A DNA stretch of 33,921 nt. Origin: Mycobacteriales bacterium. GTDB taxonomy: Bacteria; Actinomycetota; Actinomycetes; BP-191. Below are positions 1,350-22,349 of this stretch, piece after piece (within the stretch, counting starts at the first letter, position 1; every line of letters starts with the position of its first letter). The position numbers and the translations under genes were made by a program. The notes beneath the pieces were generated by a model. The model was not told the DNA's origin. It saw only the letters and a list, made by a program, of their open reading frames with translations, and made no database searches. The stretch spans positions 1-33,921 of the forward strand of contig DASQMY010000313.1 of NCBI GenBank assembly GCA_035645255.1, read 5' to 3'.

Positions 1350-1411
1350 GCCGCCATCGTCCCGCGTGGCCGCACGACAGGTCGAACCCACCACTGCTGC
1401 GAGGTGCACAG

Positions 1412-3091
1412 ATGGGGTACAACGGCGTCATGGCCACGCTGCTGCTCGGCCCGCTCCTGCGCCACGTCGGCGACAACGACGCGACGATCTGGGTGGAGAC
1501 GGACGCGCCGTGCCTTGTCGAGGTGCGCGCGGGCGCGGTCGTCGGGACGGAGCCGACCTTCACCGCCGCGGGCCACCACTACGCGATCGTGGTGCTCACC
1601 GGGTTCGAGCCCGGCACGACGGCGGCGTACGACGTCCGGCTGGACGGCACCGTCGTCTGGCCGCCGGCCGACTCGGCCTACCCGCCGAGTCTCATCCGCA
1701 CGATCGACCCGGAGCAGCCGTTCACGCTGGTGTTCGGGTCGTGCCGCTACTCGACGCCGGAGGCGGTCAAGGACGAGCGCGGCTACGACGCCGACGTGCT
1801 CGACGCGTTCGCCGTCCGGATGGCGAAGCAGCCGCCGGAGCAGTGGCCGGAGGCGCTGCTGCTGCTCGGCGACCAGGTCTACGCCGACGAGACGTCGAAG
1901 GCGACGCAGGAGTTCATCCGGTCGCGCCGGGATGTGACGAAGGCGCCGCACCTCGGCGTCGCCGACTTCGAGGAGTACACCCGGCTCTACTACGAGTCGT
2001 GGTCCGATCCCGACGTCCGCTGGCTGCTGTCGACGCTGCCCAGCTCGATGATCTTCGACGACCACGACATCCGCGACGACTGGAACACCTCGCACCAGTG
2101 GCGGGTGGAGATGCAGGCCACCGACTGGTGGGAGGAGCGGGTCACCGGCGGGCTGATGAGCTACTGGATCTACCAGCACCTCGGCAACCTGTCTCCTGAC
2201 GCGCTGGCGGAGGACGATCTCTACCGCAAGGTGCGCGAGGCGGACGACGCCGAGCACCTGCTGCGCGAGTTCGCGCAGGCGGCCGACCGCGAGGCGGACG
2301 GGGCCAAGGGCGCGCAGTGGTCCTACCGCCGCGACTTCTGCCGCACCCGGCTGCTCGTGATCGACTCCCGCTGCGGCCGGATCCTCTCCGACGGGCACCA
2401 CGACATGCTGGGTGACGCAGAGTTCTCCTGGATCGAGGAGCAGGTCGAGGACGGCGACTACGACCACCTGCTGGTCGGCACGTCGCTGCCGTGGCTGATG
2501 CCGCGCGCGATGCACGACGTGGAGTCGTGGGACGAGGCGCTGGTCCGCGGGGCGCGCGGCCCGCGGATGGCCAAGCTCGGCGAGAAGATGCGGCGCGGCG
2601 CGGACCTCGAGCACTGGGCGGCGTTCCGCGACTCGTTCGACCGGCTGGCGCGGCTCTTCGCGCGAATCGGCCGCGGGCTGCAGGGTGCCGATCCGCCGGC
2701 GACGATCTGCGTCCTGTCCGGCGACGTCCACCACGCCTACGTCGCCGAGGCGGCGTACGACGAGCCGGTCGAGTCGCGGATCTACCAGCTCACCTGCTCG
2801 CCGGTGCACAACAAGGTGCCCAAGGTCATGCACTGGGCGTTTCGCATCGGGTGGAGCCGGCTGGCGGAGCGGATCACCACGCGGCTCGGCAAGCACGCCC
2901 GGGTTGCGCCGATGCTGATCCACTGGCACCGCGTGGCCGGGCCGTACTTCGGCAACGAGCTCGCGACGCTGACGCTGACCGACCGGGAGGCGAGGCTGAA
3001 GCTGGAGAAGGCGCCGAAGGACAACGCGGGTGCGCACGAGGCGATCGAGTGCGTCGAGGACATGTCGCTGACCGCGGCGCCGCGGCGATGA
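1412..3091 (+). CDS. PhoD-like (alkaline phosphatase D family) metallophosphatase, no signal peptide
   Basis: 559 aa. Motifs: FGSCRY, LLLGDQVYADE, FDDHDIRDDWN, LSGDVHHAY. GAGG sits 7 nt upstream of the ATG at 1412. Confidence 0.75.
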   Translation: MGYNGVMATLLLGPLLRHVGDNDATIWVETDAPCLVEVRAGAVVGTEPTFTAAGHHYAIVVLTGFEPGTTAAYDVRLDGTVVWPPADSAYPPSLIRTIDPEQPFTLVFGSCRYSTPEAVKDERGYDADVLDAFAVRMAKQPPEQWPEALLLLGDQVYADETSKATQEFIRSRRDVTKAPHLGVADFEEYTRLYYESWSDPDVRWLLSTLPSSMIFDDHDIRDDWNTSHQWRVEMQATDWWEERVTGGLMSYWIYQHLGNLSPDALAEDDLYRKVREADDAEHLLREFAQAADREADGAKGAQWSYRRDFCRTRLLVIDSRCGRILSDGHHDMLGDAEFSWIEEQVEDGDYDHLLVGTSLPWLMPRAMHDVESWDEALVRGARGPRMAKLGEKMRRGADLEHWAAFRDSFDRLARLFARIGRGLQGADPPATICVLSGDVHHAYVAEAAYDEPVESRIYQLTCSPVHNKVPKVMHWAFRIGWSRLAERITTRLGKHARVAPMLIHWHRVAGPYFGNELATLTLTDREARLKLEKAPKDNAGAHEAIECVEDMSLTAAPRR

Positions 3092-3121
3092 CGGAAGCGG
3101 CCGGCGCGACCGGCGAGGGAG

Positions 3122-5263
3122 CTACTTCTTGACGAACGTCATCGGTCGCAGCCGGGTCGTCTCGGCCTCGGTCTCGACCACGAAGAGCGCGATTTCGTTC
3201 GCGCCGGCGCGGTAGAGCCGGTCGGGCACCACGCCGGCGAGCTGCGCAGCGTCCGTCGTCGCGTCCGGGAAGACGAGGGGGACAGCCCCGATGGTCCCGT
3301 TGACCGCCACCGCGATCGGTGTGCCGACCGCGGCCCCGCGCACGCCGCCCCACACCATGGCCGGGAAGCTGTGCGACCCCGGCTCGACCGTGGTACGCGG
3401 ACCTACGTTGAGTCGCGCGGTGACCGGGGCTGCCGGGCCAGTAGAGAGGTCGGCCACCCTGCGGCCGACAAGGTCGCCGTGCGGCCCCCAGGCGAACAAG
3501 CCGTCGACGCCGAGCTCCGGCCGCCCGTACTGCCCGACCAGGCCGCGCAGCAACTTGGGTCGGACCGACGTCGCAGAGAACGTCTCGCGCTTGCCGGCCT
3601 TCTCGTACCAGAACTTCTCATCGCGCGTGCGGAGGTCCGGCCCGAGCCCGGACATGCCGTCCACGCGCCACGGCACAGGGACGTCGAGCACGTCAGCGAT
3701 GGTGGGCAGCAGGTCCACGTGCTCCCAGTTGCGATCGTCGACCACGCCCTTGGTCTGGCCCGGGAGCTTCACGAACGTCGGCACGTAGGTCAGCTCGTGC
3801 GCGTTGGCGGGCTCGAACTCGCGGATCGAGAGCGGCGCGGTGAAGTTGATGCCATGGTCCGCGGTCACGATGACGAGCGACTCGTCGTAGCTGCCTTGCG
3901 CCTTCAGCGTGTCGACGACCTCGCCGATCAGCCCGTCGGTGTAGGCCAGCTGCAGCAGGTGGCGTTGGCGGAAGCTCAACTCGGCACCCGACAGCGCGTC
4001 ACCGGGCAGCTTCTTGGCGGCTGTGAACTTGCGGGCCGCGCGCGGATAGGTCGCGCCCGACGGCAGGTATCGATACGGGATGTGCGGCAGAAGCAGGTGC
4101 AGGAAGCGCAGCGTCGGCCGGTCGGCGGGCTTGAGCGACTCGAGGAAGCTGGTGAACCGCGCCGGCTGGTCGACCCTGAGCTCGTTCCAGCGGAACCTGA
4201 CAGGCAGCTGGTCGCCGTCCTGGGCGTGGTCGTCCTCATCCTTCTCCGCCGGCTCCTCGACGAACTGCTCGCCAGCCGGGTCGTCGACGATCTTCAGCGG
4301 AGTCATCATCTTGCCCGCGGCGGTGACCGCCTCGCGCAGGATCGGGCGCAGCCCGGTCTCCCGCCCGTTGTCCACCGTCGCGGTACGCCGGCAGACCGAC
4401 GGTGGGCACAGCTCGCTGATCGACTCGGACGCATTGATCGAGTACTCGCTGCCGAGCAGCGTGAAGAGGTTGTCGCGGTAGGTGAGGTACGACGGCGGCA
4501 GCTCGCGCTGCGGGTAGCGGCCGTTGAGCATGGCCGGCAGCGCGACCGGCGTGAAGCCGGAGATACCGGTCGCCTGGCGGAACCACGTGCTGTCCTTCTG
4601 CAGGCGCGCGAAGTTGGGGAACACGCGCTCATCGACCAGGCCGTCGGGGCCGAGCAGGCTGATCGCCGGGAACTCGTCGAAGACGATCATCACGACGGGC
4701 GGCTTCTTCGTCCCGCTCGGCGCGGACGTCGCGACCTCGGCCTGCGGCGTCGCGCTCGTCACCAGCTTGCCCGCCGGCGATGCCACGACGAACAGCAGCG
4801 CGAAGACGAGCGGTGCGGGCGTGAGGTAGCGCATGAACGTCCGGGCGACCGTGCTCCGGACGACGAGGGCGGCCGCGGCTACGCCGATCACGAGACCCAG
4901 TGCGAGCAGGGAGTAGCCGCGGTCCGGGATCGCCGCCTTGGCGACCTGGATGGCGAGCAGGGTGAGCAGCCCAGCGACGAAGGCGATGTGCAGCCACCGC
5001 TGGGCGGTCCGGCTGACCAGGCCGACCACCTGCTCCGCCAGCCACAGCACGAGCGTCGGGCAGAGCATCACGATGAGCAGGAACAGCACTATGTGCAGCC
5101 GCTCGGCACGCCAGTAGACGAACGAGTCAGGGCTTTCACCGGTGACGTGGAGCAGCGGCTGGGTGATCGCGAAGCCGGTGAGCACGAACAGATCCAGCAA
5201 CCGCCGGACCCCGTCTCGGCCCTCGGGTCTGGTGCCGGCTGGGGCGGCTTGCGCCTCAGGCAC
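3122..5263 (-). CDS. membrane-anchored alkaline-phosphatase-superfamily enzyme (sulfatase / LTA-synthase-like transferase)
   Basis: Track ORF 3122..5398. The N-terminus has several hydrophobic helices, followed by VVMIVFDEFPAISLL, GFTPVALPAMLNG and VIVTADHGINF (metal and nucleophile motifs of the AP superfamily). Start chosen at GTG 5263, which overlaps the upstream stop (GTGCCTGA). The exact start is uncertain. Confidence 0.7.
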   Translation of the reverse strand: MPEAQAAPAGTRPEGRDGVRRLLDLFVLTGFAITQPLLHVTGESPDSFVYWRAERLHIVLFLLIVMLCPTLVLWLAEQVVGLVSRTAQRWLHIAFVAGLLTLLAIQVAKAAIPDRGYSLLALGLVIGVAAAALVVRSTVARTFMRYLTPAPLVFALLFVVASPAGKLVTSATPQAEVATSAPSGTKKPPVVMIVFDEFPAISLLGPDGLVDERVFPNFARLQKDSTWFRQATGISGFTPVALPAMLNGRYPQRELPPSYLTYRDNLFTLLGSEYSINASESISELCPPSVCRRTATVDNGRETGLRPILREAVTAAGKMMTPLKIVDDPAGEQFVEEPAEKDEDDHAQDGDQLPVRFRWNELRVDQPARFTSFLESLKPADRPTLRFLHLLLPHIPYRYLPSGATYPRAARKFTAAKKLPGDALSGAELSFRQRHLLQLAYTDGLIGEVVDTLKAQGSYDESLVIVTADHGINFTAPLSIREFEPANAHELTYVPTFVKLPGQTKGVVDDRNWEHVDLLPTIADVLDVPVPWRVDGMSGLGPDLRTRDEKFWYEKAGKRETFSATSVRPKLLRGLVGQYGRPELGVDGLFAWGPHGDLVGRRVADLSTGPAAPVTARLNVGPRTTVEPGSHSFPAMVWGGVRGAAVGTPIAVAVNGTIGAVPLVFPDATTDAAQLAGVVPDRLYRAGANEIALFVVETEAETTRLRPMTFVKK

Positions 5264-6981: not shown

Positions 6982-7803
6982 TCAGCGCACCGCCGCCGTA
7001 CGGCGCCGTGCTGCGCCGACGCCGGCGGCCAGCACGAAGGCGCCCAGCGCAACGACCACGATCATCGCGCCGGGGACGGTGTCCGCGTAGTACGACCCGG
7101 TGACTCCGGTCACCGCCGACAGGACGCCCACCGCGAGCGCGGTGAGGACGGTTGCCCGGAAGCCGCGCACCAGCTGCTGCGCGGCCGCGACGGGCACGAC
7201 CATCAGCGCGCTGACGAGCAGGAGGCCGACGACCCGCATCGCCACCGTTACGGTCAGTGCGGCGAGCACGGCGAGCAACAGGTTGAGCGCGCGGACCGGG
7301 AGCCCGGCGACCGCGGCGTACTCCTCGTCGTATGACGCCGCGAACAGCTCGCGCCCGAGCGCGGCGAGGGTCAGCAGCAGGACGACCGACAGCACGGCGA
7401 TGACGCGCAGGTCGCCCGGCGACACCGAGTTCAGCGACCCGAACAGGTAGCTGAGCAGGTTGGCATTGGTGCCGCCGGGGGCGAGCCCGATCAGCAGGAC
7501 GCCGCCGGCGATGCCGCCGTAGAAGAGCAGCGCCAGTGCGACGTCGCCGCTGGTGCGGCCGCGCTGGCGGATCAGCTCGATGACGACCGCGCCGATGCTC
7601 GCCACGACCACGGCCGTCAGCACCGGTGCCGTACCGAGCAGGAACCCGAGCGCGACGCCGGTCAGCGCGATGTGGCCGATGCCGTCGCCCATCAGCGCGA
7701 GCCGGCGCTGCACCAGGAACACGCCGACGGCCGGCGCGGACAGGCCGACGAGCACGGCGGCGATCAGCGCCCGCTGCATGAAGCCGTACTGCAGCATGGT
7801 CAT
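6982..7803 (-). CDS. znuB: metal (zinc) ABC transporter permease
   Basis: The real start is ATG 7803 (MTMLQYGFMQRALIAA...), which overlaps the upstream stop as ATGA. 273 aa, polytopic, with the GDGIGHIALTG motif of ZnuB/MntB-type permeases. The track ORF 6982..8394 is an artefactual 5' extension. Confidence 0.85.
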   Translation of the reverse strand: MTMLQYGFMQRALIAAVLVGLSAPAVGVFLVQRRLALMGDGIGHIALTGVALGFLLGTAPVLTAVVVASIGAVVIELIRQRGRTSGDVALALLFYGGIAGGVLLIGLAPGGTNANLLSYLFGSLNSVSPGDLRVIAVLSVVLLLTLAALGRELFAASYDEEYAAVAGLPVRALNLLLAVLAALTVTVAMRVVGLLLVSALMVVPVAAAQQLVRGFRATVLTALAVGVLSAVTGVTGSYYADTVPGAMIVVVALGAFVLAAGVGAARRRTAAVR

Positions 7804-8570
7804 GACAGCCCCCACGCGCCGCGGACCGCCTCCGGCTCGTGCGCCGGCGGGTGCGCGTGCTCGGGGTCGAGGTGGTGGATGTCGTGCGACGTCGGCGGCG
7901 CGCCGTCGTGGACCACCCGGCCCTCGGTGAGTACGACGGCCCGCCGGACGAGCGGCGTCATCAGGCCGATCTCGTGCAGCACGCAGAGGATCGTGACGCC
8001 GTCGCCGACGAGTCGCTCGAACGTCGACACCAGCGTGTCCTGCGACGCCGCGTCGACGCCGGACATCGGCTCGTCGAGGACGAGCAGCTCGGGCTGGCTG
8101 GCGAGCGCCCGCGCGATGAGAACGCGCTGTTGCTGGCCGCCGGAGAGCGTGCCGACCGCGCTGCCCGACTTGTCCGACAGGCCGACGACGTCGAGCGCGC
8201 CGGACACCGCGGCCCGGTCGGCCGTGGAGCCGCGCCGGAACCGCCCGATGCGGGCGAGCCGGCCGCTGGCGACCACCTCGCGGACGGTCGCCGACACCCC
8301 ACCTGGAGCACTGGTGCGCTGCGGCACCCAGCCCACCCGCGGCCAGTCGCGGAACCGGGCGACCGGCGTACCGAACAGCTCGAGGTCGCCGCACGTCAGG
8401 TGGGTCAGGCCGAGCATCGTCCGGACGAGCGTCGTCTTGCCGGACCCGTTGGCACCGAGGACGGCGACCACGTCGCCCTGCTCGATCCGCAGGTCGACGT
8501 GGTCGAGCACGCGGCGGCCGTCGTAGCCCGCGCAGACGCCGCGCAGCTCGACGACCGGCGGGGTGGTCAC
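7800..8570 (-). CDS. znuC: metal (zinc) ABC transporter ATP-binding protein
   Basis: GTG at 8570 overlaps the upstream stop (GTGA). Walker A GANGSGKTT, signature LSGGQQQR, Walker B LLVLDEP. His-rich C-terminal tail (HDIHHLDPEHAHPPAHEPE). Confidence 0.85.
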   Translation of the reverse strand: MTTPPVVELRGVCAGYDGRRVLDHVDLRIEQGDVVAVLGANGSGKTTLVRTMLGLTHLTCGDLELFGTPVARFRDWPRVGWVPQRTSAPGGVSATVREVVASGRLARIGRFRRGSTADRAAVSGALDVVGLSDKSGSAVGTLSGGQQQRVLIARALASQPELLVLDEPMSGVDAASQDTLVSTFERLVGDGVTILCVLHEIGLMTPLVRRAVVLTEGRVVHDGAPPTSHDIHHLDPEHAHPPAHEPEAVRGAWGLS

Positions 8571-9526
8571 GGACAACCGAGCGCCGCGTGGAGGCTCGCC
8601 AGGTTGGTGCGCATGCCGGAGAAGTAGTCGCCGGACTCGGGCGCGGCCTCCAGCGGGCTGAGCACCTGCGCCTCGGCGCCGACCTCGCGGGCCAGCGACT
8701 CCGCCGTCTTCGGGCTCACCAGCTCCTCGAAGAAGATCGTGGTCACCTTCCGCGCCTTGGCCAGCTCGGCCACCTCGATCAGCCGCTTGGGCGAGGGCTC
8801 GGACTCCGGCGTCAGACCGGTGATGGCGATCTGCTCGAGGCCGTAGCGCCGCGCCAGGTAGCCGAACGCGTTGTGGCTGGTGACGAACTCCCTGCGCGCG
8901 CAGCCGGACAGCCCGGCTCGGAACTCCTCGTCGAGCGCCGCGAGGTCGGCCTTGAGCGCGGCGGCGTTGGCCTCGAAGCTCTGCGCCGCGCCCGGGCGGA
9001 CCTGCGCGAGCCGCTTGGCGGTCGCGTCGGCGAGCGACTGCATCCGCTGCGGGTCGAGCCAGATGTGCGGGTCGGCGCCCTTCTCGTCCTCGTGCAGCTC
9101 CCCCTCCTCCAGCGGCACGAAGCCCTGCTCGAGCGGCTGTACGGCGGCCAGGTCCAGCGAGCGGTCCTTGGCGTGCTCGTCCACCGCCTCGTCGACGGCG
9201 GGCTGGAAGCCGCGCTCGAAGACGACCAGGTCGGTCTCGCCGAGGCCGGCCACCTGCTTCGCGGTGAGCTCGAGGTCGTGCGGCTCGGCGCCCGGCTGGG
9301 TCAGCCCGGTGACTTCGACGAGCTCTCCCCCGACCCGCTCGGTGAGGAACTCGAGCGGGTAGAACGCCGCCGCGACCGTCACCTTGTCGGCCGCCGCGGT
9401 GGCGGCGGCTGTCCCGCTCCCGGTGGTCCGGCTCCCGTCGGCGGCGGCGGCGGTGCCCGAGTCGTCCGAGCACCCGACCAGGCCGCCGATGATGAGAGCG
9501 GCCAGTGCCGCGGCTGTCCTTCGCAT
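8567..9526 (-). CDS. znuA: metal (zinc) ABC transporter substrate-binding lipoprotein (TroA/ZnuA family)
   Basis: 319 aa. Lipobox LVGC after a signal peptide. AEPHDLELT and DPHIWLDP metal-ligand motifs, plus an acidic/His loop EGELHEDEKGADPH. Confidence 0.85.
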   Translation of the reverse strand: MRRTAAALAALIIGGLVGCSDDSGTAAAADGSRTTGSGTAAATAAADKVTVAAAFYPLEFLTERVGGELVEVTGLTQPGAEPHDLELTAKQVAGLGETDLVVFERGFQPAVDEAVDEHAKDRSLDLAAVQPLEQGFVPLEEGELHEDEKGADPHIWLDPQRMQSLADATAKRLAQVRPGAAQSFEANAAALKADLAALDEEFRAGLSGCARREFVTSHNAFGYLARRYGLEQIAITGLTPESEPSPKRLIEVAELAKARKVTTIFFEELVSPKTAESLAREVGAEAQVLSPLEAAPESGDYFSGMRTNLASLHAALGCP

Positions 9527-9545
9527 GACCGAAACACTAGCCTAT

Positions 9546-9560
9546 TGAAAACGGTTGTCA
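9546..9560. promoter_or_regulatory. Zur box (7-1-7 palindrome) in the znuA / zur divergent region
   Basis: TGAAAAC-G-GTTGTCA has one mismatch from a perfect palindrome. It resembles the actinobacterial Zur consensus TGAAAAT-N-ATTTTCA. It lies 20 nt upstream of the znuA ATG and 61 nt upstream of the zur GTG. Confidence 0.7.
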
Positions 9561-9620
9561 AAACTGTATGGAGCCCGGGTTGGTACCCTCGGTGCCCCGA
9601 CCGACCGAGGAGATGCCGTC

Positions 9621-10055
9621 GTGCCCGAGCCCGAGCCTGGTGACAGCGGCGGCGCGCTGCCCGGCGTACGGCTGACCCGGCAGCGCACCGCGGTCGCGGA
9701 GGTGCTCGACCGGGTGGACGGCTTCCGCAGCGCGCAGGAGCTGCACGACCTGCTCCGCCGCAGCGGCGAGGCGGTCGGCCTGACCACTGTCTACCGGCAC
9801 CTGCAGGCGCTGGTCGACGCCGGCCAGGTCGACGTGCTGCGGGTCGTCGACGGCGAGGCGATCTACCGCCGCTGCCCCACGCAGGACCACCATCACCACC
9901 TGGTCTGCCGGCTCTGCGGCCGCAGCGTCGAGATCGACGGGCCGGAGGTCGAGGCATGGGCGACCCGGATGGCCGGGGAGCACGGCTTCGTCGAGATCAG
10001 CCACAGCGTGGAGGTGTTCGGCACGTGCAGCGACTGCGCCAGCAGCCGGTCCTGA
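9621..10055 (+). CDS. zur: Fur-family zinc uptake regulator
   Basis: Start set at GTG 9621 (GAGGAG 8 nt upstream); the track gives TTG 9555. Winged-helix block LTRQRTAVAEVL...TTVYRHLQ, and metal sites HHHHLVCRLCG ... CSDC. Confidence 0.85.
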   Translation: MPEPEPGDSGGALPGVRLTRQRTAVAEVLDRVDGFRSAQELHDLLRRSGEAVGLTTVYRHLQALVDAGQVDVLRVVDGEAIYRRCPTQDHHHHLVCRLCGRSVEIDGPEVEAWATRMAGEHGFVEISHSVEVFGTCSDCASSRS

Positions 10056-14480: not shown

Positions 14481-16772
14481 CTAGCCGGACGGGGCCATGT
14501 CGACGAACCGGCTGTAGTGGCCTTGGAACGCAACGGTGATCGTGTCGGTCGGGCCGTTGCGATGCTTGGCGACGATGAAGTCGGCCTCGCCGGCCCGGGG
14601 CGACTCCTTCTCGAACGCATCTTCGCGGTAGAGCAGCACGACCATGTCGGCGTCCTGCTCCAGCGAGCCGGACTCGCGCAGGTCGGAGATCTGCGGCTTC
14701 TTGTCCGCGCGCTGCTCCGGCCCGCGGTTGAGCTGGCTGATCGCGACGACCGGTATCTCCAGCTCCTTGGCCAGCAGCTTGAGGGAACGGGAGATCTCGC
14801 TGACCTCCTGCTGCCGGTTCTCGACCTTGCGCGGCGAGCTCATCAGCTGCATGTAGTCGAGGACGATCAGCTTGAGGTCGTGCCGCTGCTTGAGCCGCCT
14901 GGCCTTGGCGCGGATCTCCATCATCGTCATGTTGGGCGAGTCGTCGATGAACAGCGGCGCACTCGCCACCTCGCCCATCCGCCGCGCGAGCCGCGCCCAG
15001 TCGTCGTCGCTCATCCGGCCGGTGCGCATGTTCTGCAGGTGCACCCGCGCCTCGGCGGACAGCAGGCGCATGGTGATCTCGTTGCGGCTCATCTCCAGCG
15101 AGAAGATCACCGACGCCATGTTGTGCTTGATCGATGCGGCGCGCGCGAGGTCGAGCCCCAGCGTCGAGTTGTGGGTCGGAATCATCGACCGGCTGGCGAG
15201 ATAGAGATGGTCGGCGTTGTCCACCTCGATGCAGCGCACCGGGACACTAGCCACCCACCGGGCCGCGGTGATGAACCGGACCGCCGCCGGCTGCACACCG
15301 CGTGCGGCGTGCTCCTTGTGCAGCAGGGCTTTCCGCTCGAGCCGGAAGACCTGGTCGTCGGTGCTGAAGGCCGCGACGTACTGCGTCGGCTGCCCGTGCG
15401 CCGTCCCACCGACCTGCGCGAGCGATGCGATCCCACAGTGGTAGCCGAGGCTCAGCACCAGCTCGCGGACGTCCGCGAGGAACCTCCAGCTCGGCGAGGC
15501 GACCTCGACCGCTCCGGACGCGGCGGGATCACCAGCGACATCGAGCAGACCCGCGAGCAGCTCGCGCCGCTGGCGCTCGGACGCACGCAGGTAGGGCGAC
15601 GGGATGTGGTCCGTCGACCGCTCGCCGAGTGCCTCGAGCAGCGCGTCGTAGCTGCCGCCGACATAACCGGCCGCCTCGATCCGGATCACGATCTCGGGGT
15701 CGCACGCGACGCCGGCCGACTGACCAGCCGCGAGGAAAGCACCGACGGCATATGGCGGGACGAGCAGCTCGCGGTCGTCCAGATCGAGCGCGGCTGTCAA
15801 CGGGACGGCATGGTTGAGAACGCCTGCCGTGCCGGCCCGCTCGATCGTCGCCGCGATCTGCTCGGTGGTCCGGACGGCCGTGCTGGTGAGCCACTGGTGC
15901 TGCGCGTCGGCGACGATCACCGTGCCGTCGGAGAACTCGACCTCGTAGCAGGGCCGAGCGGTCATGACATCGGTCGCTGCGACCACGCGGGTCGGCCGTC
16001 CGTCCGCGCCAAGAACGAGATCGCCGACTGCGACCTCCCCCATCGTCGTCCAGCCGTCGGGCGTCGGCAGCGGCGTATCGAGTGCGAGCGCCTTACCGAC
16101 AGCCGGGCGCGCCGCGACGATGATCAGCTGCCCCGGGTGCAGTCCATTCGTCAGCCGGTCGAGATCGGCGAAACCCGTTGGTACGCCGGCCATCGTGCCG
16201 TCACGACTCGAGATCGACTCGATCTCGTCGAGCGTCGGCTGGAGCAGCTCCTCGAGCCGGATGAAGTCCTCGGTGGTCCGCTGCTCGGTGACGTCGTAGA
16301 TCGCCTGCTGCGCGCGGTCTACGACGTCGTCGACGTCGGCGCCGCGGCCGGCGTAACCGAGCTGGACGATGTGGGTGCCGGCCTCGACGAGGCGGCGCAG
16401 GATGGCCTGCTCATTGACGATCTTGGCGTAGTAGCCGGCGCTGGCTGCGGTCGGCACGGCGGACACCAGCGTGTGCATGTAGGGCGCGCCGCCGATGCGC
16501 TGCAGCTGCCCGAGCCGCTGCAGCTCGGCAGCGACGGTGACTGCGTCAACCGGCTCGCCGCGACCGTAGAGGTCGATCACGACGTCGTAGACGAGTGAGG
16601 GGTTGGGCCGGTAGAAGTCGACGGAGCGGAGCGTCTCGACGACGTCGGCGATGGCGTCCTTGCTGAGCAGCATGCTGCCCAGCACGCACTGCTCGGCCTC
16701 GATGTTCTGCGGCGGCGTGCGCTCGAACTCCGTCGACGGCGCCGACGCCTGATGCACGAGGTCGATTGCCAC
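14481..16772 (-). CDS. dnaB: replicative DNA helicase DnaB precursor (227-aa N-extein + 308-aa intein + 228-aa C-extein)
   Basis: Start GTG 16772 (VAIDLVHQ...[16 protein letters not shown]). Walker A is split as ARPAVGK | intein | STLGLDLA. Downstream: Walker [11 protein letters not shown], and [23 protein letters not shown]. The track ORF 14481..17450 is over-extended 5'. Confidence 0.9.
15168..16091 (-). mobile_element. intein in the DnaB P-loop, class 3 signature, decayed LAGLIDADG region
   Basis: 308 codons, from Ala1 ([14 protein letters not shown]) to ...SMIPTHN, followed by Ser+1. Block [10 protein letters not shown] (Trp), block [15 protein letters not shown] (Cys), block G PTHN (Thr-His-Asn). 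Central [12 protein letters not shown] and [11 protein letters not shown] are LAGLIDADG-like. Removing it restores GKS in Walker A. Reading frame and residue counts checked (227+308+228=763). Confidence 0.85.
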
Positions 16773-17144: not shown

Positions 17145-17804
17145 ATGCGCCTGGTCATCGCCCGCTGCAGCGTCGACTACGTCGGCCGGCTGACCGCCCA
17201 CCTGCCGATGGCGACCCGGCTGCTGCTGGTCAAGGCCGACGGCTCGGTGTCCGTCCATGCCGACGACCGCGCCTACAAGCCGTTGAACTGGATGAGCCCG
17301 CCGTGCTGGCTCGCCGAGGCGGACGGTGTTTGGCGCGTGACCAACAAGTCCGGCGAGGAGCTGGTGGTCAGGATCGAGGAGGTGCTGCACGACTCGCGGC
17401 ACGAGCTCGGCGTCGACCCCGGTCTGCAGAAGGACGGCGTCGAGGCGCACCTCCAGGAGCTGCTCGCCGAGCGGTGCGAGGTGCTCGGTGACTGCTGGAC
17501 GCTGATCCGCCGCGAGTATCCCACCGACATCGGACCGGTCGACCTGCTCTGCCGGGACGCCGACGGCGCCAAGGTCGCCGTCGAGATCAAGCGCAAGGGC
17601 GAGATCGACGGCGTCGAGCAGCTGTCCCGCTACGTCGAGCGGCTGGGCCGCGACCCGCTGCTCGCACCGGTCCGCGGCGTCCTCGCGGCGCAGCAGTTCA
17701 CCCCGCAGGCCCGCGTGCTGGCGGAGGCGCGCGGCATCACCTGCGTGACGCTGGACTACGACGAGCTGCGCGGCATCGAGTCGAGCACGCTGCGACTGTT
17801 CTGA
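17145..17804 (+). CDS. nucS: endonuclease NucS (EndoMS, mismatch-specific)
   Basis: [21 protein letters not shown]..., 219 aa. C-terminal nuclease block [30 protein letters not shown]. Real start ATG 17145 lies inside track ORF 16752..17804. Confidence 0.9.
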
Positions 17805-17810
17805 CCGCCG

Positions 17811-18113
17811 TCAGGTCGCGATGCGCGTGTAGCGCGTGACCCCCACGCCGCGGGCCTTCGCCGGGTCGGTCGGGATCCGGTCGTGCGATGCCCGGTGGTC
17901 GGCCGACCGCATGTACGCGCGGAACGCCGCCTCGTCGTCCCACCAGGTGACCATCAGGTAGGCGCCGGCGCGCTGGTGGTCGCGCCAGACCTCCAGCCGC
18001 TGGAACCCGTCGTGACCCTCCACGGCCCGCAGCCGGTCCTCGAACGCCGCTTCCAGCACGCCGGTCCCCACGACGTCGACGGCCAGCTCGCTCGCCACCA
18101 CGAACGCGGTCAC
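17811..18113 (-). CDS. ABM-domain (antibiotic biosynthesis monooxygenase / IsdG-MhuD-like fold) protein
   Basis: 100 aa. GFQRLEVWRD...YLMVTWWDDEAAFRAYMRSADHRASH is a typical ABM pattern. The GTG start overlaps the upstream stop (GTGA). Confidence 0.7.
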   Translation of the reverse strand: MTAFVVASELAVDVVGTGVLEAAFEDRLRAVEGHDGFQRLEVWRDHQRAGAYLMVTWWDDEAAFRAYMRSADHRASHDRIPTDPAKARGVGVTRYTRIAT

Positions 18114-19201
18114 GGCCGCTCCCCCATGGGGTCTCGGCGGTCACCCCGGTCGCCGGGCTCCCCGGAGGGCTCGGCCCCGTGACCGGCCGACGTCTCGCCG
18201 ATCCGGGCGGCGCGTGCCCGGCTGGCCTCGTCGCGCAGGATGCCGGCCGCGCGCGGCGCGTCGTCGGTCACGGCGCCGGCGAGGTAGTCGCAGCTGTCGA
18301 TGATCGCTTCCGCCGGCACGCCGCGCGGCGTGAGCAGGCCGAGCAGCCAGCTGAGCACGTCGCGGACGATCGTGGGGTCGTCGCAGGCGACCGCGGCCGC
18401 GGCATGCCGGGCCAGCCAGCCGAAGTCCTCGAACGTCCGGTCCCGCTGCACCGACGTCATGGAGCTCAGCCACGCATCGCGGGCCGACTGCCGGGCGAGC
18501 GCGCGCTCGATCAGCTCGGTCGGCACGGCGTCGAGGAGCAGCGCCTCGGCCGGGACGGGATGCGCGCCTGCGGTGACCGGCATCCCGGCCACGCTGCGGA
18601 CGGCTTCGGTGAGGCGCGTCGCGTCGGCGAGCCACATGTCGGCGCCCAGCCGGCGGGCGCGGTGCTGCGACCCGCCCCACGCCCAGCCGCCCACGATCAC
18701 CGGTACGCCGGCCGCGTGCGCCGCGTCGATGCTGCGCGCCGCACCGATCAGGTTGGTCGGCATCGTGCAGGACAGTGCGAGCGCGGCCGGCGCGACGACG
18801 CGCAGGTGCCGGCCAAGGTGGTCGGCCGGCACGCTGCCGCCGACCATGATGACCTCGAGGGCGGTGTCCTCGGCGAGGCCGCGGGCCAGGCGGGCGGGCA
18901 GCGTGTGCCACTCGCCCTCGGCGCAGGCGAGCACGACGCGCAGGGTGTCCGCGTCCCGGGCGCTCGCGGCGGACAGCCGAGCGAGCGCCTGCTCGGAGAT
19001 CGCCGTCGCCGCATGCTCGTCCGCGACCGTCCAGGTGCCGTCGAACCACAGGTCGCCGACGCGCTGCTGAGCCGGGATCACGATGTCGCGCACCAGGTCG
19101 CCGCGCGACGCACCGCGCGCGAGCGCCTGCTCCAGCGTGTCCAGCGCCGCGGCGGCGTCGGCGGCCGCCAGGGCGGCGAAGTAGTCGTCGAACGTGGACA
19201 T
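18110..19201 (-). CDS. stand-alone CarH/LitR-like cobalamin-binding protein (B12-binding_2 helix bundle + B12 Rossmann domain + ~170-aa C-terminal helical domain), no DNA-binding domain
   Basis: Start ATG 19201 (MSTFDDYF...), 363 aa. VGDLW-FDGTWTVAD-EH is a Wx9EH motif. CAEGEWHTLP is an E-x-H motif. SCTMPTNL and VPVIVGG are the S-x-L and GG motifs of B12-binding domains. The track ORF 18110..19693 is over-extended. Confidence 0.7.
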   Translation of the reverse strand: MSTFDDYFAALAAADAAAALDTLEQALARGASRGDLVRDIVIPAQQRVGDLWFDGTWTVADEHAATAISEQALARLSAASARDADTLRVVLACAEGEWHTLPARLARGLAEDTALEVIMVGGSVPADHLGRHLRVVAPAALALSCTMPTNLIGAARSIDAAHAAGVPVIVGGWAWGGSQHRARRLGADMWLADATRLTEAVRSVAGMPVTAGAHPVPAEALLLDAVPTELIERALARQSARDAWLSSMTSVQRDRTFEDFGWLARHAAAAVACDDPTIVRDVLSWLLGLLTPRGVPAEAIIDSCDYLAGAVTDDAPRAAGILRDEASRARAARIGETSAGHGAEPSGEPGDRGDRRDPMGERP

Positions 19202-20154
19202 CAGCGCTCGCCCATTGCGCCGTAGTCTACGGCGGCAGCGGTCGCCACCTGGCCGGTGCCGGCCCGGTCGAGCGCTGCCCCGGCCGCGCGGACGGCGACG
19301 TCCGCACCGCGCTCGTCGACGACCGCGACGCCCGCCGCGACTCTGAGACGCGGCTCGCCGGCGTGACCCGCCCGGTGGCGCCGATGCCAGCGCGTGGCCA
19401 GCCGGCGCAGTCGCACGACGACTGTCTCCACAGGTACGTCGGCGAGCACGAGCGCGAACTCGCGCTCCCCGTACCGGCCGGAGAACTCGCCCACCCGGAC
19501 CACGCTGCGGAGCAGGGCGCCGAAGGCGCGCAGCGGCTCGTCGGTCGCGGCGCCTTCGGGCGCGGTCAGCCGGAGCAGGCAGACCACCTCGCCGGCGGCA
19601 GCCGCAGCCACCCGGCTGCGGGTCTCGGCGGGCGCGGGCAGACCTGTCGCCGGGTCGAGGGCCGGCTGCCGGTCGCGCCGGAGCCGGTCGCACCGCGCGG
19701 CCGACAGCAGTGCGTGCTCGACCAGCAGCGGCAGGTGCTCTGTCAGCTGCATGGCGGCGACGCTCAGCGGCTCGGCGAGCACGACCTGCGGCTCTCCGTC
19801 GCCGAGCGAGATGTCCACCGGGATCGCGTCCTCGTCGGCGAGCCGGGCCGGCACGACGGTGCCCCCGAGGTCCCGGACGGCCGTTCGCAGCACCTGCGCG
19901 GCGTCGGCGCGCGTCTCCACCTGCTCGAGTGCCCGGATCGCGGCGAGGACCGCGAGGTCGCCGCCCGGATCCTCGCCGGCGGGCGGGTGGCTGCGCGCGC
20001 GGCCGCGTTGAGCGTCTCGACCGGCGGCGGCCGCTGGGCCGGCACCGGTCGGCTGGCTGCCAGGCGGGTCACCGCCCACCGGCTCACCGCCTCCCCGTTC
20101 GCGCCCGGTCTGACCGGTGCCCGGCGGGACACCGCCGGGCGTCAGCTCAGACAT
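19201..20154 (-). CDS. degenerate GGDEF-domain protein with disordered Gly/Pro-rich N-terminus and an unassigned sensor-like middle domain
   Basis: ATG 20154 (MSELTPGG...), 317 aa. GGDEF-like core DPATGLP...VVCLLRL...GRYGEREFALVLADV...RVAAGVAVVD. The signature is GEREF instead of GG(D/E)EF and the D-x-D metal site is absent. The stop overlaps the next start (TGATG). The start codon is uncertain. Confidence 0.6.
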   Translation of the reverse strand: MSELTPGGVPPGTGQTGRERGGGEPVGGDPPGSQPTGAGPAAAAGRDAQRGRARSHPPAGEDPGGDLAVLAAIRALEQVETRADAAQVLRTAVRDLGGTVVPARLADEDAIPVDISLGDGEPQVVLAEPLSVAAMQLTEHLPLLVEHALLSAARCDRLRRDRQPALDPATGLPAPAETRSRVAAAAAGEVVCLLRLTAPEGAATDEPLRAFGALLRSVVRVGEFSGRYGEREFALVLADVPVETVVVRLRRLATRWHRRHRAGHAGEPRLRVAAGVAVVDERGADVAVRAAGAALDRAGTGQVATAAAVDYGAMGER

Positions 20155-20173
20155 CCCGTTCCCCGTCGCACCG

Positions 20174-20365
20174 TCAGGCGAACACGTCGGCCATGACGAG
20201 GCGAACGACGAAGCCGCGCGGCTCCCGCCGCAGCTCGAGCCGGTCGCATAGCGTGCGCGCGAGCCACAGGCCCATGCCGTCGGCCGGCACCAGCGCACCG
20301 GTGAGCTCGGCGTCCGCCGCGTAGATCAACGCGTCGTGCACCAGCGGCGCGGGTGAGGCGGTCAT
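20174..20365 (-). CDS. 63-aa remnant resembling the two ends of an RsbA-like MEDS/HATPase anti-sigma regulatory protein
   Basis: ATG 20365 with AGGAA 6 nt upstream. MTASPAPLVHDALIYAADAELTGALVP (MEDS-start-like) is joined directly to GMGLWLARTLCDRLELRREPRGFVVRL (G2-box/C-terminus of HATPase_c-like). Confidence 0.4.
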   Translation of the reverse strand: MTASPAPLVHDALIYAADAELTGALVPADGMGLWLARTLCDRLELRREPRGFVVRLVMADVFA

Positions 20366-20553
20366 GGCGGTTCCTGGCTCGGATGGCGACGAGGCCGCAT
20401 GGCGGTTGCCCGGACAACCAGGACAGATTCGCACGCTTACGCCGGGAAATGCGCGCCTCGGCCACATAGTTGTGCAGGGAGCGGCTGACGCGCGCGACGC
20501 CGTTGCGTAGCCTCGTAGGTGAACGCACTCCCCGAGAGGCAGGACACGACCCG

Positions 20554-21399
20554 ATGCCCGAGGCAACCACCATGACCCCCAGCGCGCCGGCCTACGACCT
20601 CGCCGACGCGGTCGACAAGCTCTACACCGACGGGATCGTCGGGCTGAAGGGCGCCTTCTCCCGCGACTGGGTCGCGGCGCTCGGCGAGGACATCGACCGG
20701 GCGTTCGACGAGGCGATCGACCGGCCCGGCGGCGCCGTCGGCCGCGGCCCCAACCGCTACTACGTCGAGGTGCACCCTGAGGACTACCGCGGTTTCGTAG
20801 AGCTGTGCACCCACCCGTGGGTCGTCGGCGTCTGCGAGTCGGTGCTCGGCCCCGACTACGAGATCGTCGAGATCGGCTTCGACATCCCGTTCGGGGGTGC
20901 CGTCAACCAGCCGTGGCACCGCGACTTCCCCTCCCCCGCGGACACCTACGAGGGCCGCCGGCTGACCTCGCTCGCGTTCAACATCACCACCGTCGACGTC
21001 GAGCCGGACATGGGGCCGTTCGAGATCGCGCCGGGCACGCAGTGGGAGTCCGGCCTGGACTTCAAGCACCAGATGTTCCCGGACGAGTCGCAGTGGCCCC
21101 GGTACGCCGGACTCGCCCAGCAGAAGCTCACGAAGATGGGCGACATCTCGGCGCGGTCGGCGTTGACCATCCACCGCGGCACGGCCAACCGCACCGACAA
21201 GAAGCGCCCGACGATGGTCCTCGGCGTGGACGCGCCCGGCGCAGGCCACGGCGCGCTGCACGACCTGCAGGTGACGCAGAAGTTCTACGACACCGTGCCG
21301 GACTCGCTGCGCCGGCACCTCGACTGCCGGGTCGTCGACCGGCTCGAGCCGATCGTCCAGAAGCACACGATCGAGGGCCTGGTGATGGGCGCGCCGTGA
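20554..21399 (+). CDS. phytanoyl-CoA dioxygenase (PhyH) family Fe(II)/2-oxoglutarate oxygenase
   Basis: 281 aa from ATG 20554 (alternative start ATG 20572). QPWHRDFP (H-x-D facial triad), distal His and Arg in ALTIHRGTANRT. Confidence 0.75.
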   Translation: MPEATTMTPSAPAYDLADAVDKLYTDGIVGLKGAFSRDWVAALGEDIDRAFDEAIDRPGGAVGRGPNRYYVEVHPEDYRGFVELCTHPWVVGVCESVLGPDYEIVEIGFDIPFGGAVNQPWHRDFPSPADTYEGRRLTSLAFNITTVDVEPDMGPFEIAPGTQWESGLDFKHQMFPDESQWPRYAGLAQQKLTKMGDISARSALTIHRGTANRTDKKRPTMVLGVDAPGAGHGALHDLQVTQKFYDTVPDSLRRHLDCRVVDRLEPIVQKHTIEGLVMGAP

Positions 21400-21401
21400 G
21401 T

Positions 21402-21495
21402 TGACCGGCGCGAGGGGCCGCAGCACGACGGTGGGCGCGCGTCACCCTGACCGGCGCGATGCGGACCACAGCACGAGGACGGGACGCCCGCTCGA
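21402..21495. repeat. two imperfect ~46-48-nt tandem direct repeats immediately after the PhyH stop
   Basis: TGACCGGCGCGA occurs at 21402-21413 and 21448-21459. CAGCACGA occurs at 21421-21428 and 21469-21476. Flanking G-rich blocks are similar. Confidence 0.6.
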
Positions 21496-21511
21496 GTCGT
21501 GCTGCCTAACC

Positions 21512-21618
21512 CCTGCCCCGCCCGGGCGCCAGTTGATCAACCTGGCGCGATTTCATGATCAAGTGAGCATGGAATGATCAAGGAATCGTGCTGGCATGAT
21601 CATCTCGGGCGGGGCGGG
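21512..21618. repeat. AT-rich TGATCA array enclosed by a GC-rich inverted repeat
   Basis: GCCCCGCCCG (21515-21524) is the exact reverse complement of CGGGCGGGGC (21606-21615). Between them, TGATCA occurs at 21535, 21557, 21576 and 21598 (spacing 22/19/22), within TTGATCAA, ATGATCAAG, ATGATCAAG and ATGATCAT. An inner palindrome GCGCCAG-N9-CTGGCGC lies at 21526-21548. Confidence 0.7.
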
Positions 21619-21706
21619 TCCGTCAGGGCCTGCGGGACGGGCGGGTCCCCGTGAGTGCCTGCGGCGTCAGCCGGGCGGGCCCCCGTTGGCCTGCTGCCTC
21701 GTGACC
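21612..21706. repeat. three imperfect GC-rich tandem repeats (27-34 nt)
   Basis: GGGCGGGTCC-GTCAGGGCCTGCGGGAC starts at 21612. GGGCGGGTCCCC-GTGAGTGCCTGCGGCG... starts at 21639. GGGCGGGCCCCC-GTTGGCCTGCTGCC... starts at 21673. Confidence 0.6.
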
Positions 21707-21717
21707 GGGGCCCGCCC
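21673..21717. terminator. 11-bp all-G:C hairpin between convergent genes (possible bidirectional, U-tract-less terminator)
   Basis: GGGCGGGCCCC (21673-21683) pairs with GGGGCCCGCCC (21707-21717), with a 23-nt loop. It lies 17 nt beyond the stop of the minus-strand hemerythrin gene. TTG follows on the plus strand, and there is no real U tract. Confidence 0.45.
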
Positions 21718-21734
21718 TTGATCGTCCGCCGGCG

Positions 21735-22349
21735 TCAGCCCTTGCTGAGCGCCTTGATCAGGTCGTCCTTGGTCATGTCGGAGCGGCCCTCGATCTCCCG
21801 CTCCTGCGCCATCTGGTAGAGCTCCTCACGGGTCAGGTCGACGAGCTGGTCCTTGGTCGTGCCCGACGTGCCGCTCCCGCCGCGCGCTGCGGCCGCGAGC
21901 GTCGTACCGCTCTTGCTCAGGGCGGCCATCTGCTCCTGCTTGATCTGCGCCGCGCTCTCGCCGAGCGCGTCGAGCTTGTCGGCCGATAGGGCCGAGCGCA
22001 TCTTCGGGAAGATCTCGCTCTCCTCCTCCTCGACATGGTGGTTGACCGCGCTCATCAGCTCGTCCACGAGCTGCTCGGCCCGCTCTCCGGCGAATCCCGC
22101 GCGCTCGATCTGCGCGATCAGCTCCTTGGCCTCCGCGTGCTCCTGCTCCGCCTCCTCCTCGAGCTCCTCGCCCTGCGGGACCGACTCGGCCAGCACGGGG
22201 TAGACGGACTGCTCCTCGACGAGCGCGTGGACGGTCAGCTCGAGGCAGATCTGCTGGGCGACCGTGCGGTCCTTGCTCTGCTGCCACTGCGCGTAGAGCG
22301 TCTCGACGCGCCGGTGGTCCTGCTCGAGCATCTCGATGGGGTCAGGCAT
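21735..22349 (-). CDS. hemerythrin-domain protein with C-terminal Rho_N (Rho N-terminal-like) domain
   Basis: 204 aa. MLEQDHRRVETLY...EEQSVYP...EHAEAKELI...HHVEEEESEIFP carries the hemerythrin His/Glu ligands. C-terminal LTREELYQMAQEREIEGRSDMTKDDLIKAL. AGAGGTG SD upstream. Confidence 0.75.
   Translation of the reverse strand: MPDPIEMLEQDHRRVETLYAQWQQSKDRTVAQQICLELTVHALVEEQSVYPVLAESVPQGEELEEEAEQEHAEAKELIAQIERAGFAGERAEQLVDELMSAVNHHVEEEESEIFPKMRSALSADKLDALGESAAQIKQEQMAALSKSGTTLAAAARGGSGTSGTTKDQLVDLTREELYQMAQEREIEGRSDMTKDDLIKALSKG

Follow-up and report, generated by a model that had tools for sequence, protein, structure and literature searches.

Photocobilins are light sensors in which a CarH-type B12 module is joined to a C-terminal five-helix globin-like domain, the photoglobin domain, which holds biliverdin non-covalently beside the corrin; green and red light both cleave the Co-C bond (PMC10979010). 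The photoglobin domain had been described bioinformatically in 2021, with GGDEF, ABM monooxygenase and heme oxygenase proteins among its listed neighbours (PMC8717448). The locus considered here is a four-gene operon on the minus strand of a 33,921-nucleotide stretch of DNA from a Mycobacteriales bacterium (GenBank assembly GCA_035645255.1, contig DASQMY010000313.1, positions 1 to 33,921), which is called the window below. The third gene of the operon encodes a 363-amino-acid protein that, judged from its sequence, is a standalone photocobilin. It is preceded by the remnant of a kinase gene and by a gene for a GGDEF-like protein, and is followed by an ABM gene. In our reading, to which we give a probability of about 0.6, the locus is the partly decayed operon of a two-chromophore light sensor: the state of the photocobilin would be read by a domain of the GGDEF-like protein that is termed X here, and the ABM protein would supply or handle the bilin.

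SasPcob from Saccharothrix syringae (PDB 8J2W/8J2X) is a standalone photocobilin whose head-to-tail dimer gives way to a monomer in the light. It owes its sub-micromolar bilin affinity to Asp270 and has been linked to STAS/SpoIIE partner-switching genes, while the function of standalone photocobilins in general "is less clear"; the study used commercial biliverdin (PMC10979010). The window protein shares with SasPcob the same three domains, the length class and the lack of both a DNA-binding domain and an attachment Cys, and differs from it in gene context. Its gene forms translationally coupled junctions with those for an X-GGDEF-like protein and an ABM protein, whereas among the genome loci surveyed neither an X domain nor an ABM lies within 6 kb of the nearest relatives of SasPcob (47-50% identity to it), which are mostly from Streptomyces.

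In the diguanylate cyclase-photocobilin fusion AbDPcob, whose sensor part AbPcob has been solved (PDB 8J2Y) and carries a His in place of Asp270, light raises the turnover of the diguanylate cyclase more than 10-fold and the photocobilin domains regulate a cyclase fragment in trans (PMC10979010). The pairing of a GGDEF protein with a photocobilin is common to AbDPcob and the window. AbPcob is closest (54-57% identity) to the sensors of loci L043, L055, L069 and L052, the first three of which are single X-GGDEF-photocobilin polypeptides of about 605-625 amino acids, so that the window pair has the appearance of an AbDPcob architecture split in two and catalytically dead. It differs in that the parts are separate genes, the cyclase is dead and the bilin-binding Asp is kept where AbPcob has His. 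The window sensor resembles the CarH/LitR regulators in its B12-binding module and in the motifs Wx9EH and ExH, and departs from them in lacking a MerR domain and in carrying a photoglobin domain as well. In related photocobilin loci a MerR domain is found on a separate X-fused protein encoded beside the photocobilin gene, an arrangement resembling a two-protein CarH analogue.

The initial annotation of the locus, made from the letters alone, had named no characterised system of this composition. For the sensor this does not stand, as photocobilins were solved and characterised in 2024 (PMC10979010). What is new is the X domain, a distinct subfamily of ABM proteins and what looks like a split and decayed form of AbDPcob.

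Gene organisation

The four genes are packed closely (Table 1). The end of the photocobilin gene and the start of the ABM gene overlap by 4 nucleotides (GTGA), the stop codon of the GGDEF-like gene shares one base with the ATG of the photocobilin gene (TGATG), and 19 nucleotides separate the first open reading frame (ORF), of 63 codons, from the ATG of the downstream GGDEF-like gene. The open reading frames, overlaps and gap re-derived here are those from which the initial annotation had described a translationally coupled operon, and every domain that it named is found by Pfam: ABM (PF03992) at 2.9e-12, B12-binding_2 (PF02607) at 4e-13, B12-binding (PF02310) at 5.5e-12, GGDEF at 3.6e-7 over profile positions 54-154 of 161 only, and the tail of HATPase_c_2 (the last 35 positions) at 8.7e-4. 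The four-gene block is not an assembly artefact, because it recurs at 99.9-100% identity in four further metagenome samples.

A scan of the whole window with Rfam at gathering thresholds gives no match, and hence no cobalamin riboswitch. A consensus scan of positions 17600-20800 finds no promoter or terminator, as expected at 77% GC, and a repeat search of the intergenic stretch 20340-20580 yields short imperfect repeats only and no convincing operator.

The photocobilin sensor

In a phmmer search of solved structures the 363-amino-acid protein matches SasPcob at E=3e-41 over residues 5-333, the globin domain included, and AbPcob at E=1.4e-36; the match to the CarH protein TtCarH reaches only about 2e-5. 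In the register of the phmmer alignment Trp61 of SasPcob corresponds to W52, Glu71-His72 to E62-H63, His108 to H99, His137 to H128, Asp270 to D259 and Trp296 to W285, and all the residues that the SasPcob paper highlights as contacts of adenosylcobalamin (AdoCbl) and biliverdin are kept, among them the Asp responsible for bilin affinity. W52, E62, H63, E97, H99, D259 and W285 are invariant across an alignment of 20 relatives, and H128 is conserved in the comparison with SasPcob.

The motifs W52-x9-E62-H63, E97-x-H99 and GG171-172 are in register with the SasPcob structure. The initial annotation had listed them as a CarH/LitR-type set together with an S-x-L motif, and it is only the last that does not hold, since the photocobilin family reads S144-C-T146 at this place. 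It had also recognised that the protein has no MerR-type DNA-binding domain, for which neither Pfam nor NCBIfam gives a match; the C-terminal helical domain of about 170 residues that it left unassigned is the photoglobin domain by alignment to SasPcob. The NCBIfam CarH model matches the B12 part only (profile positions 89-272), and an assignment of the sensor to CarH/LitR was rejected for want of a MerR domain.

Four sequence signatures, GxxW, EH, GxxH and GxxxP, have been reported for light-responsive B12 domains (PMC11796333), and all four are present in the window photocobilin. Some photocobilin relatives also match the Pfam Phycobilisome family. The 363-amino-acid protein has no Cys at the phycobiliprotein attachment position, and bilin binding is therefore expected to be non-covalent. 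By homology to SasPcob, AdoCbl would sit base-off/His-on via His99, with its adenosyl group against Trp52 and Glu62-His63, and the bilin would be bound in the C-terminal photoglobin domain via Asp259 and Trp285. By analogy with the characterised relatives, the sensor would react to green light and to red light and pass from dimer to monomer on photolysis.

B12-binding domains serve as ligand sensors too, and the protein could accordingly be imagined as a dark sensor of cobalamin availability and not of light. With all four light-responsive signatures present and the bilin pocket intact, we consider this very unlikely.

The photocobilin ends in a Gly/Pro/Asp/Arg-rich tail of about 30 residues that runs into the ABM start codon. 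The tail is missing in most of 19 aligned relatives and none of them has one of comparable length.

The X domain and its partners

X lies between the low-complexity N-terminus and the GGDEF domain of the GGDEF-like protein and is the "middle" domain to which the initial annotation had drawn attention. An AF2 model of X by itself (predicted local distance difference test score, pLDDT, 93.6) begins with two helices, continues with three short strands and closes with a long helix that leads into the GGDEF domain. A fold search of the PDB with this model gives no significant match, the best being the GAF domain of KdpD at E=0.15, which is a lead only. X has no match in Pfam or NCBIfam, and no paper in the photoglobin and photocobilin literature searched names such a domain.

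Searched exhaustively with HMMER, 1.84 billion cluster representatives yield 280 proteins that match X at E<=1e-3. A Pfam scan of 148 of these contains no family that covers X itself, and reveals fusions of X to GGDEF (58), EAL (14), MerR (13), PAS (about 10), B12-binding (8-9), REC (8), OmpR-type winged helix-turn-helix (wHTH, 7), HATPase_c (6), HATPase_c_2 (4), ANTAR (2) and ABM (2) domains. Of 80 photocobilin-centred loci taken from GTDB genomes (the relatives numbered 410 in total), 23 have an X-bearing gene, either a GGDEF-like homologue or X alone, immediately upstream of the photocobilin gene or in fusion with it. In metagenome loci centred on X, where at least 600 nucleotides of downstream sequence are available, the photocobilin gene starts 21-196 nucleotides after the X gene in 36 of 37 loci, 27 of the 37 being of the MerR-X type, in a scan that used 7 closer X sequences and whose loci are biased toward MerR-X relatives and in many cases alike. 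The co-occurrence for which the initial annotation had proposed a neighbourhood survey is found, X-GGDEF genes adjoining photocobilin genes in many loci and ABM genes doing so in some.

The photocobilin gene follows MerR-X (L091), X-ABM with a 4-nucleotide overlap (L093), REC-wHTH-X (L145/146) or a single X-GGDEF-ABM open reading frame (L130, L131, L138); in L092 MerR-X is followed by a photocobilin-type ABM gene at the end of a short contig, and in L147 the order is ABM, photocobilin, X-GAF-ANTAR. Fusions are seen for all pairings, namely X-photocobilin, X-GGDEF-photocobilin, X-ABM, X-GGDEF-ABM and photocobilin-ABM. The X-photocobilin fusions that contain no GGDEF domain (P0036, P0040, P0041, P0079; loci L002, L012-L014) are usually encoded beside PAS/REC-GGDEF-EAL genes.

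From this comparative genomics we infer that X is a module that couples the photocobilin to its output, and physical docking would be the simplest form of such coupling. X would read the state of the photocobilin and pass the signal to whatever is fused to it, in relatives usually an intact diguanylate cyclase, and also a MerR, OmpR-type DNA-binding, ANTAR or ABM domain. X might instead be an independent sensor or oligomerisation domain, for example for a small ligand, that is merely co-inherited with photocobilin genes. It sits where sensor input domains usually sit, N-terminal to GGDEF via a long helix and C-terminal to MerR, its fold bears the weak GAF resemblance noted above, its invariant Asp (in PxDxS) and invariant Gly residues (in LGG and GxGEP) could form a pocket, and in L134 and L148 it is internal to multidomain proteins with no photocobilin gene nearby. 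An independent role is nevertheless hard to square with an adjacency that is nearly obligate across six different fused outputs, with the direct X-photocobilin fusions, and with the complex that a fragment of the AbDPcob cyclase (AbDGC) forms with AbPcob, by which it is regulated in trans (PMC10979010; the X content of the fragment is not stated there). We regard it as possible but doubtful, and continue with X as the receiver of the photocobilin signal.

Several of the loci are of note in themselves. A MerR-HTH protein with a C-terminal X, followed about 100 nucleotides on by a standalone photocobilin, is a common pair in soil metagenomes (L091, L094-L127); it looks like a two-protein CarH analogue and may be the commonest context of X. 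At 2107-5049 (minus strand) of L003 a REC-PAS-GGDEF-EAL protein with a C-terminal MEDS domain is encoded beside an X-GGDEF and photocobilin pair, and MEDS, lost from the first gene of the window, thus recurs around photocobilin sensors in different fusions. In L002, from a Nocardioidaceae metagenome-assembled genome, an X-photocobilin gene and an ABM gene stand beside genes for a KaiC-like ATPase, two small proteins and a PAS-GGDEF-EAL protein (1075-5220, minus strand), which may point to a connection of light sensing with a KaiC-type system.

The degenerate cyclase

In the AF2 model of the GGDEF-like protein (pLDDT 92.9) a long helix joins a small N-terminal domain to a GGDEF fold, and Foldseek matches the model to PleD at 1.8e-8 and to WspR and the bacteriophytochrome-linked cyclase IsPadC at about 1e-8. 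The fold is kept and the active site is not. Alignment with intact relatives shows GEREF at residues 229-233 where these have RYGGDEF or RFGGEEF, and CLLRLTAPEG with a 7-residue deletion in place of the metal/substrate loop DxDxFKxxND. The inhibitory site (I-site) RxxD, which is present in many GGDEF cyclases and absent from others, reads RVGE at 220-223 and is kept in most relatives. With the GGDEF motif, the metal/substrate loop and the I-site all lost, the protein cannot make cyclic di-GMP (c-di-GMP), and its classification as a cyclase was rejected on these three features.

The initial annotation had seen the destroyed active site (GEREF, no DxD loop) and proposed an adaptor or receptor in consequence. 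The active site is as it described; the comparison with relatives points instead to lineage-specific decay of a partner that is normally an intact cyclase, and not to a purpose-built adaptor fold. Most X-GGDEF partners of photocobilins align with intact DxLTG, DLDxFKxxND, RxxD and RYGGDEF/RFGGEEF motifs. Degenerate copies are those of the window, L001, P0121, P0122 and P0124; the closest relatives, P0121 (RYDDEDAF) and P0122 (RHGDDEF), show the same degeneration, loop deletion included, and L001 and P0124 have a similar form. The motif is also lost in other, scattered members of the X-GGDEF family. A word-indexed homologue search with the full GGDEF-like protein returned 5 matches only, probably because it was swamped by the low-complexity N-terminus.

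The kinase remnant

The 63-residue product of the first open reading frame retains about 27 N-terminal and 36 C-terminal residues of a protein with MEDS and HATPase_c_2 domains. Its last 30 residues match the end of the NCBIfam RsbA_anti_sig model at 7.4e-8, and it contains neither MEDS nor a complete ATP-binding HATPase_c_2 domain. A sister lineage (L088) is syntenic with the window, with a DeoR regulator, a hemerythrin-Rho_N protein and a PhyH dioxygenase ahead of the operon, and has a full-length MEDS-HATPase_c_2 gene at the same position, called at 309 amino acids and 316 amino acids long from the ATG corresponding to the window start, followed by a degenerate X-GGDEF gene and then the photocobilin gene. 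Blastn aligns the window to L088 in two pieces that overlap by 4 nucleotides at the junction. The 63-codon open reading frame thus comes from a 762-bp in-frame deletion in an RsbA-like gene, which removed nearly all of MEDS and the ATP-binding part of the kinase domain and left the upstream region and the downstream spacing intact. That this frame is a HATPase remnant had been recognised in the initial annotation, and the Pfam tail, the NCBIfam match and the intact L088 gene all agree with it.

In the ancestral operon the first gene would accordingly have encoded an RsbA-like partner-switching kinase. Some Streptomyces loci (L065, L074) likewise have an RsbA-like gene no more than 6 kb from the photocobilin gene, which fits the partner-switching links noted in the literature (PMC10979010).

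Selection and decay

Ratios of nonsynonymous to synonymous substitution rates (dN/dS) were computed by the Nei-Gojobori method for the window against L089 and L088. The values are 0.20 for the photocobilin, 0.16 for ABM and 0.19 for X, close to the 0.10-0.18 of flanking housekeeping genes, and 0.43 for the degenerate GGDEF part; as averages over long branches, these figures are uninformative on selection after the deletion. Purifying selection has preserved the sensor, X and ABM as a core, and the dead cyclase domain is relaxed. Since the core has been so preserved, the module is probably still a light sensor that works by protein contacts, the cyclase having lost its motif, loop and I-site in this lineage. 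This agrees with the general reading of the initial annotation, a light- or corrinoid-responsive module for protein-protein signalling, which remains the most likely one for a sensor family that has itself been characterised since 2024.

The whole locus could be regarded as a decaying relic in which, after loss of first the cyclase and then the kinase, the remaining genes drift toward pseudogenes for want of an output. The destruction of all three cyclase features, the 762-bp deletion in the first gene, a dN/dS of 0.43 in the GGDEF part against 0.10-0.20 in neighbouring genes and the recurrence of GGDEF degeneration across the X-GGDEF family are what such a relic would be expected to show. The three large open reading frames are intact, however, with a coding-type GC content at third codon positions (GC3) of 0.91-0.97, and X, photocobilin and ABM have dN/dS values of 0.16-0.20. 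The same degenerate GGDEF domain with its loop deletion has been kept in at least three lineages at about 24% protein divergence, one of which still has the kinase, and the deletion keeps both the reading frame and the coupling to the genes downstream. A relic is therefore improbable, and we prefer the operon of a light sensor that has decayed in part.

Some observations nonetheless weigh against that preference. With the cyclase dead and the kinase deleted, no output is identifiable in the window, and the module may be heading for loss, dN/dS being silent on the time since the deletion. SasPcob, the basis on which cofactors and light response are extrapolated, is only about 40% identical to the window protein over ungapped aligned segments. 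Adjacency and fusion show a functional link only, so that X could bind a small molecule or mediate oligomerisation, and the multidomain proteins of L134 and L148 have X and no photocobilin gene nearby. Of the 80 genome loci only 8 have ABM, and the MerR-X loci with several kb of flank lack it; in the window ABM itself two of the three IsdG catalytic residues are missing (Asn replaced by Ser, Trp by Tyr).

The ABM protein

ABM is the product of the last gene of the operon. Its presence had been noted in the initial annotation, where it was given no role; bilin supply is the natural hypothesis. Its best solved relatives are Bacillus subtilis HmoB (5.6e-7), Thermus thermophilus TT1380 (9e-7) and Mycobacterium tuberculosis MhuD (1.7e-4 to 2e-3), and with the exception of the uncharacterised TT1380 these nearest relatives are heme degraders of the IsdG branch. 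The catalytic triad of IsdG is Asn7/Trp67/His77, and Asn7 has been reported to be critical for the activity of IsdG and MhuD (PMC6018153). In an alignment with reference sequences of MhuD and IsdG and with HmoB and TT1380 (both as given by the structure-database matches), the window protein has Ser8/Tyr67/His77 at these places, a Ser/Tyr/His combination that is typical of ABM proteins linked to photocobilins. The axial His (His77 of IsdG, His75 of MhuD) is conserved in 9 of 11 photocobilin-linked ABM proteins, and His77 of the window aligns with it. On this alignment the photocobilin-linked ABM proteins form a distinct subfamily. With IsdG/IsdI, MhuD and HmoB the window protein shares the ABM fold and the axial His, and differs from them in Ser for the catalytic Asn and Tyr for the ruffling Trp, replacements that are subfamily-wide; its function is predicted from sequence. 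The label of an IsdG enzyme was rejected, one defining feature being present and two absent. The NCBIfam heme oxygenase models score 27 bits against a cut-off of 119. The automated names of the ABM homologues at JGI are heme-degrader-like, which is annotation and not evidence.

The ABM gene is downstream of the photocobilin gene in L002, L007, L009, L085 and L089, directly upstream of it in L015, L040 and L064, where in L015 and L040 a SpoIIE phosphatase gene precedes it, and elsewhere in the photocobilin cluster in L052 and L079. ABM is also fused to photocobilin (P0105), to X (P0170) and to X-GGDEF. At least 14 ABM homologues share an equal-sized longest contig with a photocobilin homologue, which suggests co-location.

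Other photoglobin systems carry a canonical heme oxygenase, fused or adjacent (PMC8717448, PMC10151467). By analogy with these photoglobin-linked enzymes, the supply or handling of bilin through degradation of heme is the most economical role for ABM, and comparative genomics gives it a chance close to even. The main competitor is a co-regulated redox, stress or small-molecule enzyme or a ligand-binding protein, acting for example on photo-oxidative by-products and taking no part in chromophore synthesis. ABM is a broad superfamily and optional in photocobilin loci, the equivalents of Asn7, critical in IsdG and MhuD (PMC6018153), and of Trp67 are replaced, and the heme oxygenase models score far below their cut-off; all this would suit such an enzyme. 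Against it stand the closest solved relatives, all in the heme-degrading branch, the conserved axial His, the fusions to photocobilin, X and X-GGDEF, and the canonical heme oxygenases that occupy the same place in other photoglobin systems (PMC8717448, PMC10151467). A role outside chromophore synthesis is a real possibility that we hold only tentatively, and bilin supply is kept as the plausible working role of ABM.

The arrangement can be compared with that of the bphO-bphP operons, where a heme oxygenase gene stands beside a bacteriophytochrome gene. In both, the gene for a bilin photoreceptor is accompanied by one for an enzyme that could form the chromophore from heme, a function that is predicted here; the window differs in having an ABM fold and no canonical heme oxygenase, and a different photoreceptor.

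A distant Ser/Tyr/His ABM (47% identity) is encoded in L149 (5001-5761), its gene overlapping by 4 nucleotides with one for a 153-amino-acid protein that matches nothing in Pfam or, by sequence, in the PDB; the surroundings contain no B12 gene. Hhalign aligns the 153-amino-acid protein weakly to the photoglobin part (E=0.0015, probability 17%), with an RT(L/F)ED(F) bilin-Asp motif in register. If the match is real, the ABM goes with the bilin module and not with the B12 module.

Implications for photocobilin signalling

If X receives the photocobilin signal, its fusion partners name the likely physiological targets of these sensors, namely c-di-GMP synthesis, MerR- and OmpR-type control of transcription and ANTAR antitermination. 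A dedicated ABM enzyme may make the native chromophore. As a modular docking domain, X could serve as a tool for systems controlled by red and green light. The window itself is a natural instance of a sensor core retained after the loss of catalysis and of one partner.

A more far-reaching reading joins these parts. X would be a portable receiver adaptor for photocobilins, the Ser/Tyr/His ABM a new heme-degrading enzyme, and the window the minimal surviving core of X, photocobilin and ABM after the loss of both enzymatic outputs. That all of this should hold together is rather unlikely. If it did, one B12-plus-bilin photoreceptor would plug into many outputs (cyclase, MerR, OmpR-type, ANTAR and kinase), MerR-X with its photocobilin would be a two-protein CarH analogue, and the natural chromophore of these sensors might not be biliverdin.

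Features of the window

Table 1. Position of the operon, its domains and other features in the window
Feature	Window position	Residues	Strand	Description
ABM gene	17811-18113		minus	100 amino acids, Pfam ABM
Photocobilin (B12 protein) gene	18110-19201		minus	363 amino acids, standalone photocobilin by sequence
B12-binding_2		5-76 of photocobilin	minus	Pfam PF02607
B12-binding		88-194 of photocobilin	minus	Pfam PF02310
Photoglobin (bilin-binding) domain	18197-18559	about 215-335 of photocobilin	minus	by alignment to the SasPcob globin domain
Low-complexity tail	18110-18200	C-terminus of photocobilin, after the photoglobin domain	minus	Gly/Pro/Asp/Arg-rich
GGDEF-like gene	19201-20154		minus	317 amino acids, X domain and degenerate GGDEF; N-terminal ~60 residues low-complexity
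X domain	19675-19959	66-160 of GGDEF-like protein	minus	roughly 95 amino acids
Degenerate GGDEF domain	19204-19656	167-317 of GGDEF-like protein	minus	by alignment with intact relatives
63-codon open reading frame	20174-20365		minus	remnant of MEDS + HATPase_c_2 (RsbA-family anti-sigma/kinase) gene
Deletion junction	20285-20288		minus	762 bp (254 codons), in frame, GCCG microhomology
PhyH-family dioxygenase gene and hemerythrin-Rho_N gene	20554-22349			flank of the operon; PhyH gene divergent from it
DnaB gene	14481-16772		minus	763 amino acids
Metal ABC transporter cluster	6982-10055			permease, ATPase and substrate-binding protein, read by eye

The gene for the PhyH-family dioxygenase is divergent from the operon and shares with it an intergenic region of 188 bp. 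Together with a gene for a hemerythrin with a C-terminal Rho_N domain it flanks the operon in the window and in L088; no such flank was seen in more distant photocobilin loci, and it is probably just local synteny.

An insertion of about 310 amino acids at the P-loop divides the DnaB_C domain of the replicative helicase DnaB into two matched stretches. No Pfam intein family matches the insertion at 1e-5; by eye it reads intein-like, ending in ...THN/S and apparently starting with Ala rather than Cys. The metal ABC transporter cluster lies beside the gene for a FUR-family regulator (Pfam, 8.6e-29), and both appear unrelated to the operon.

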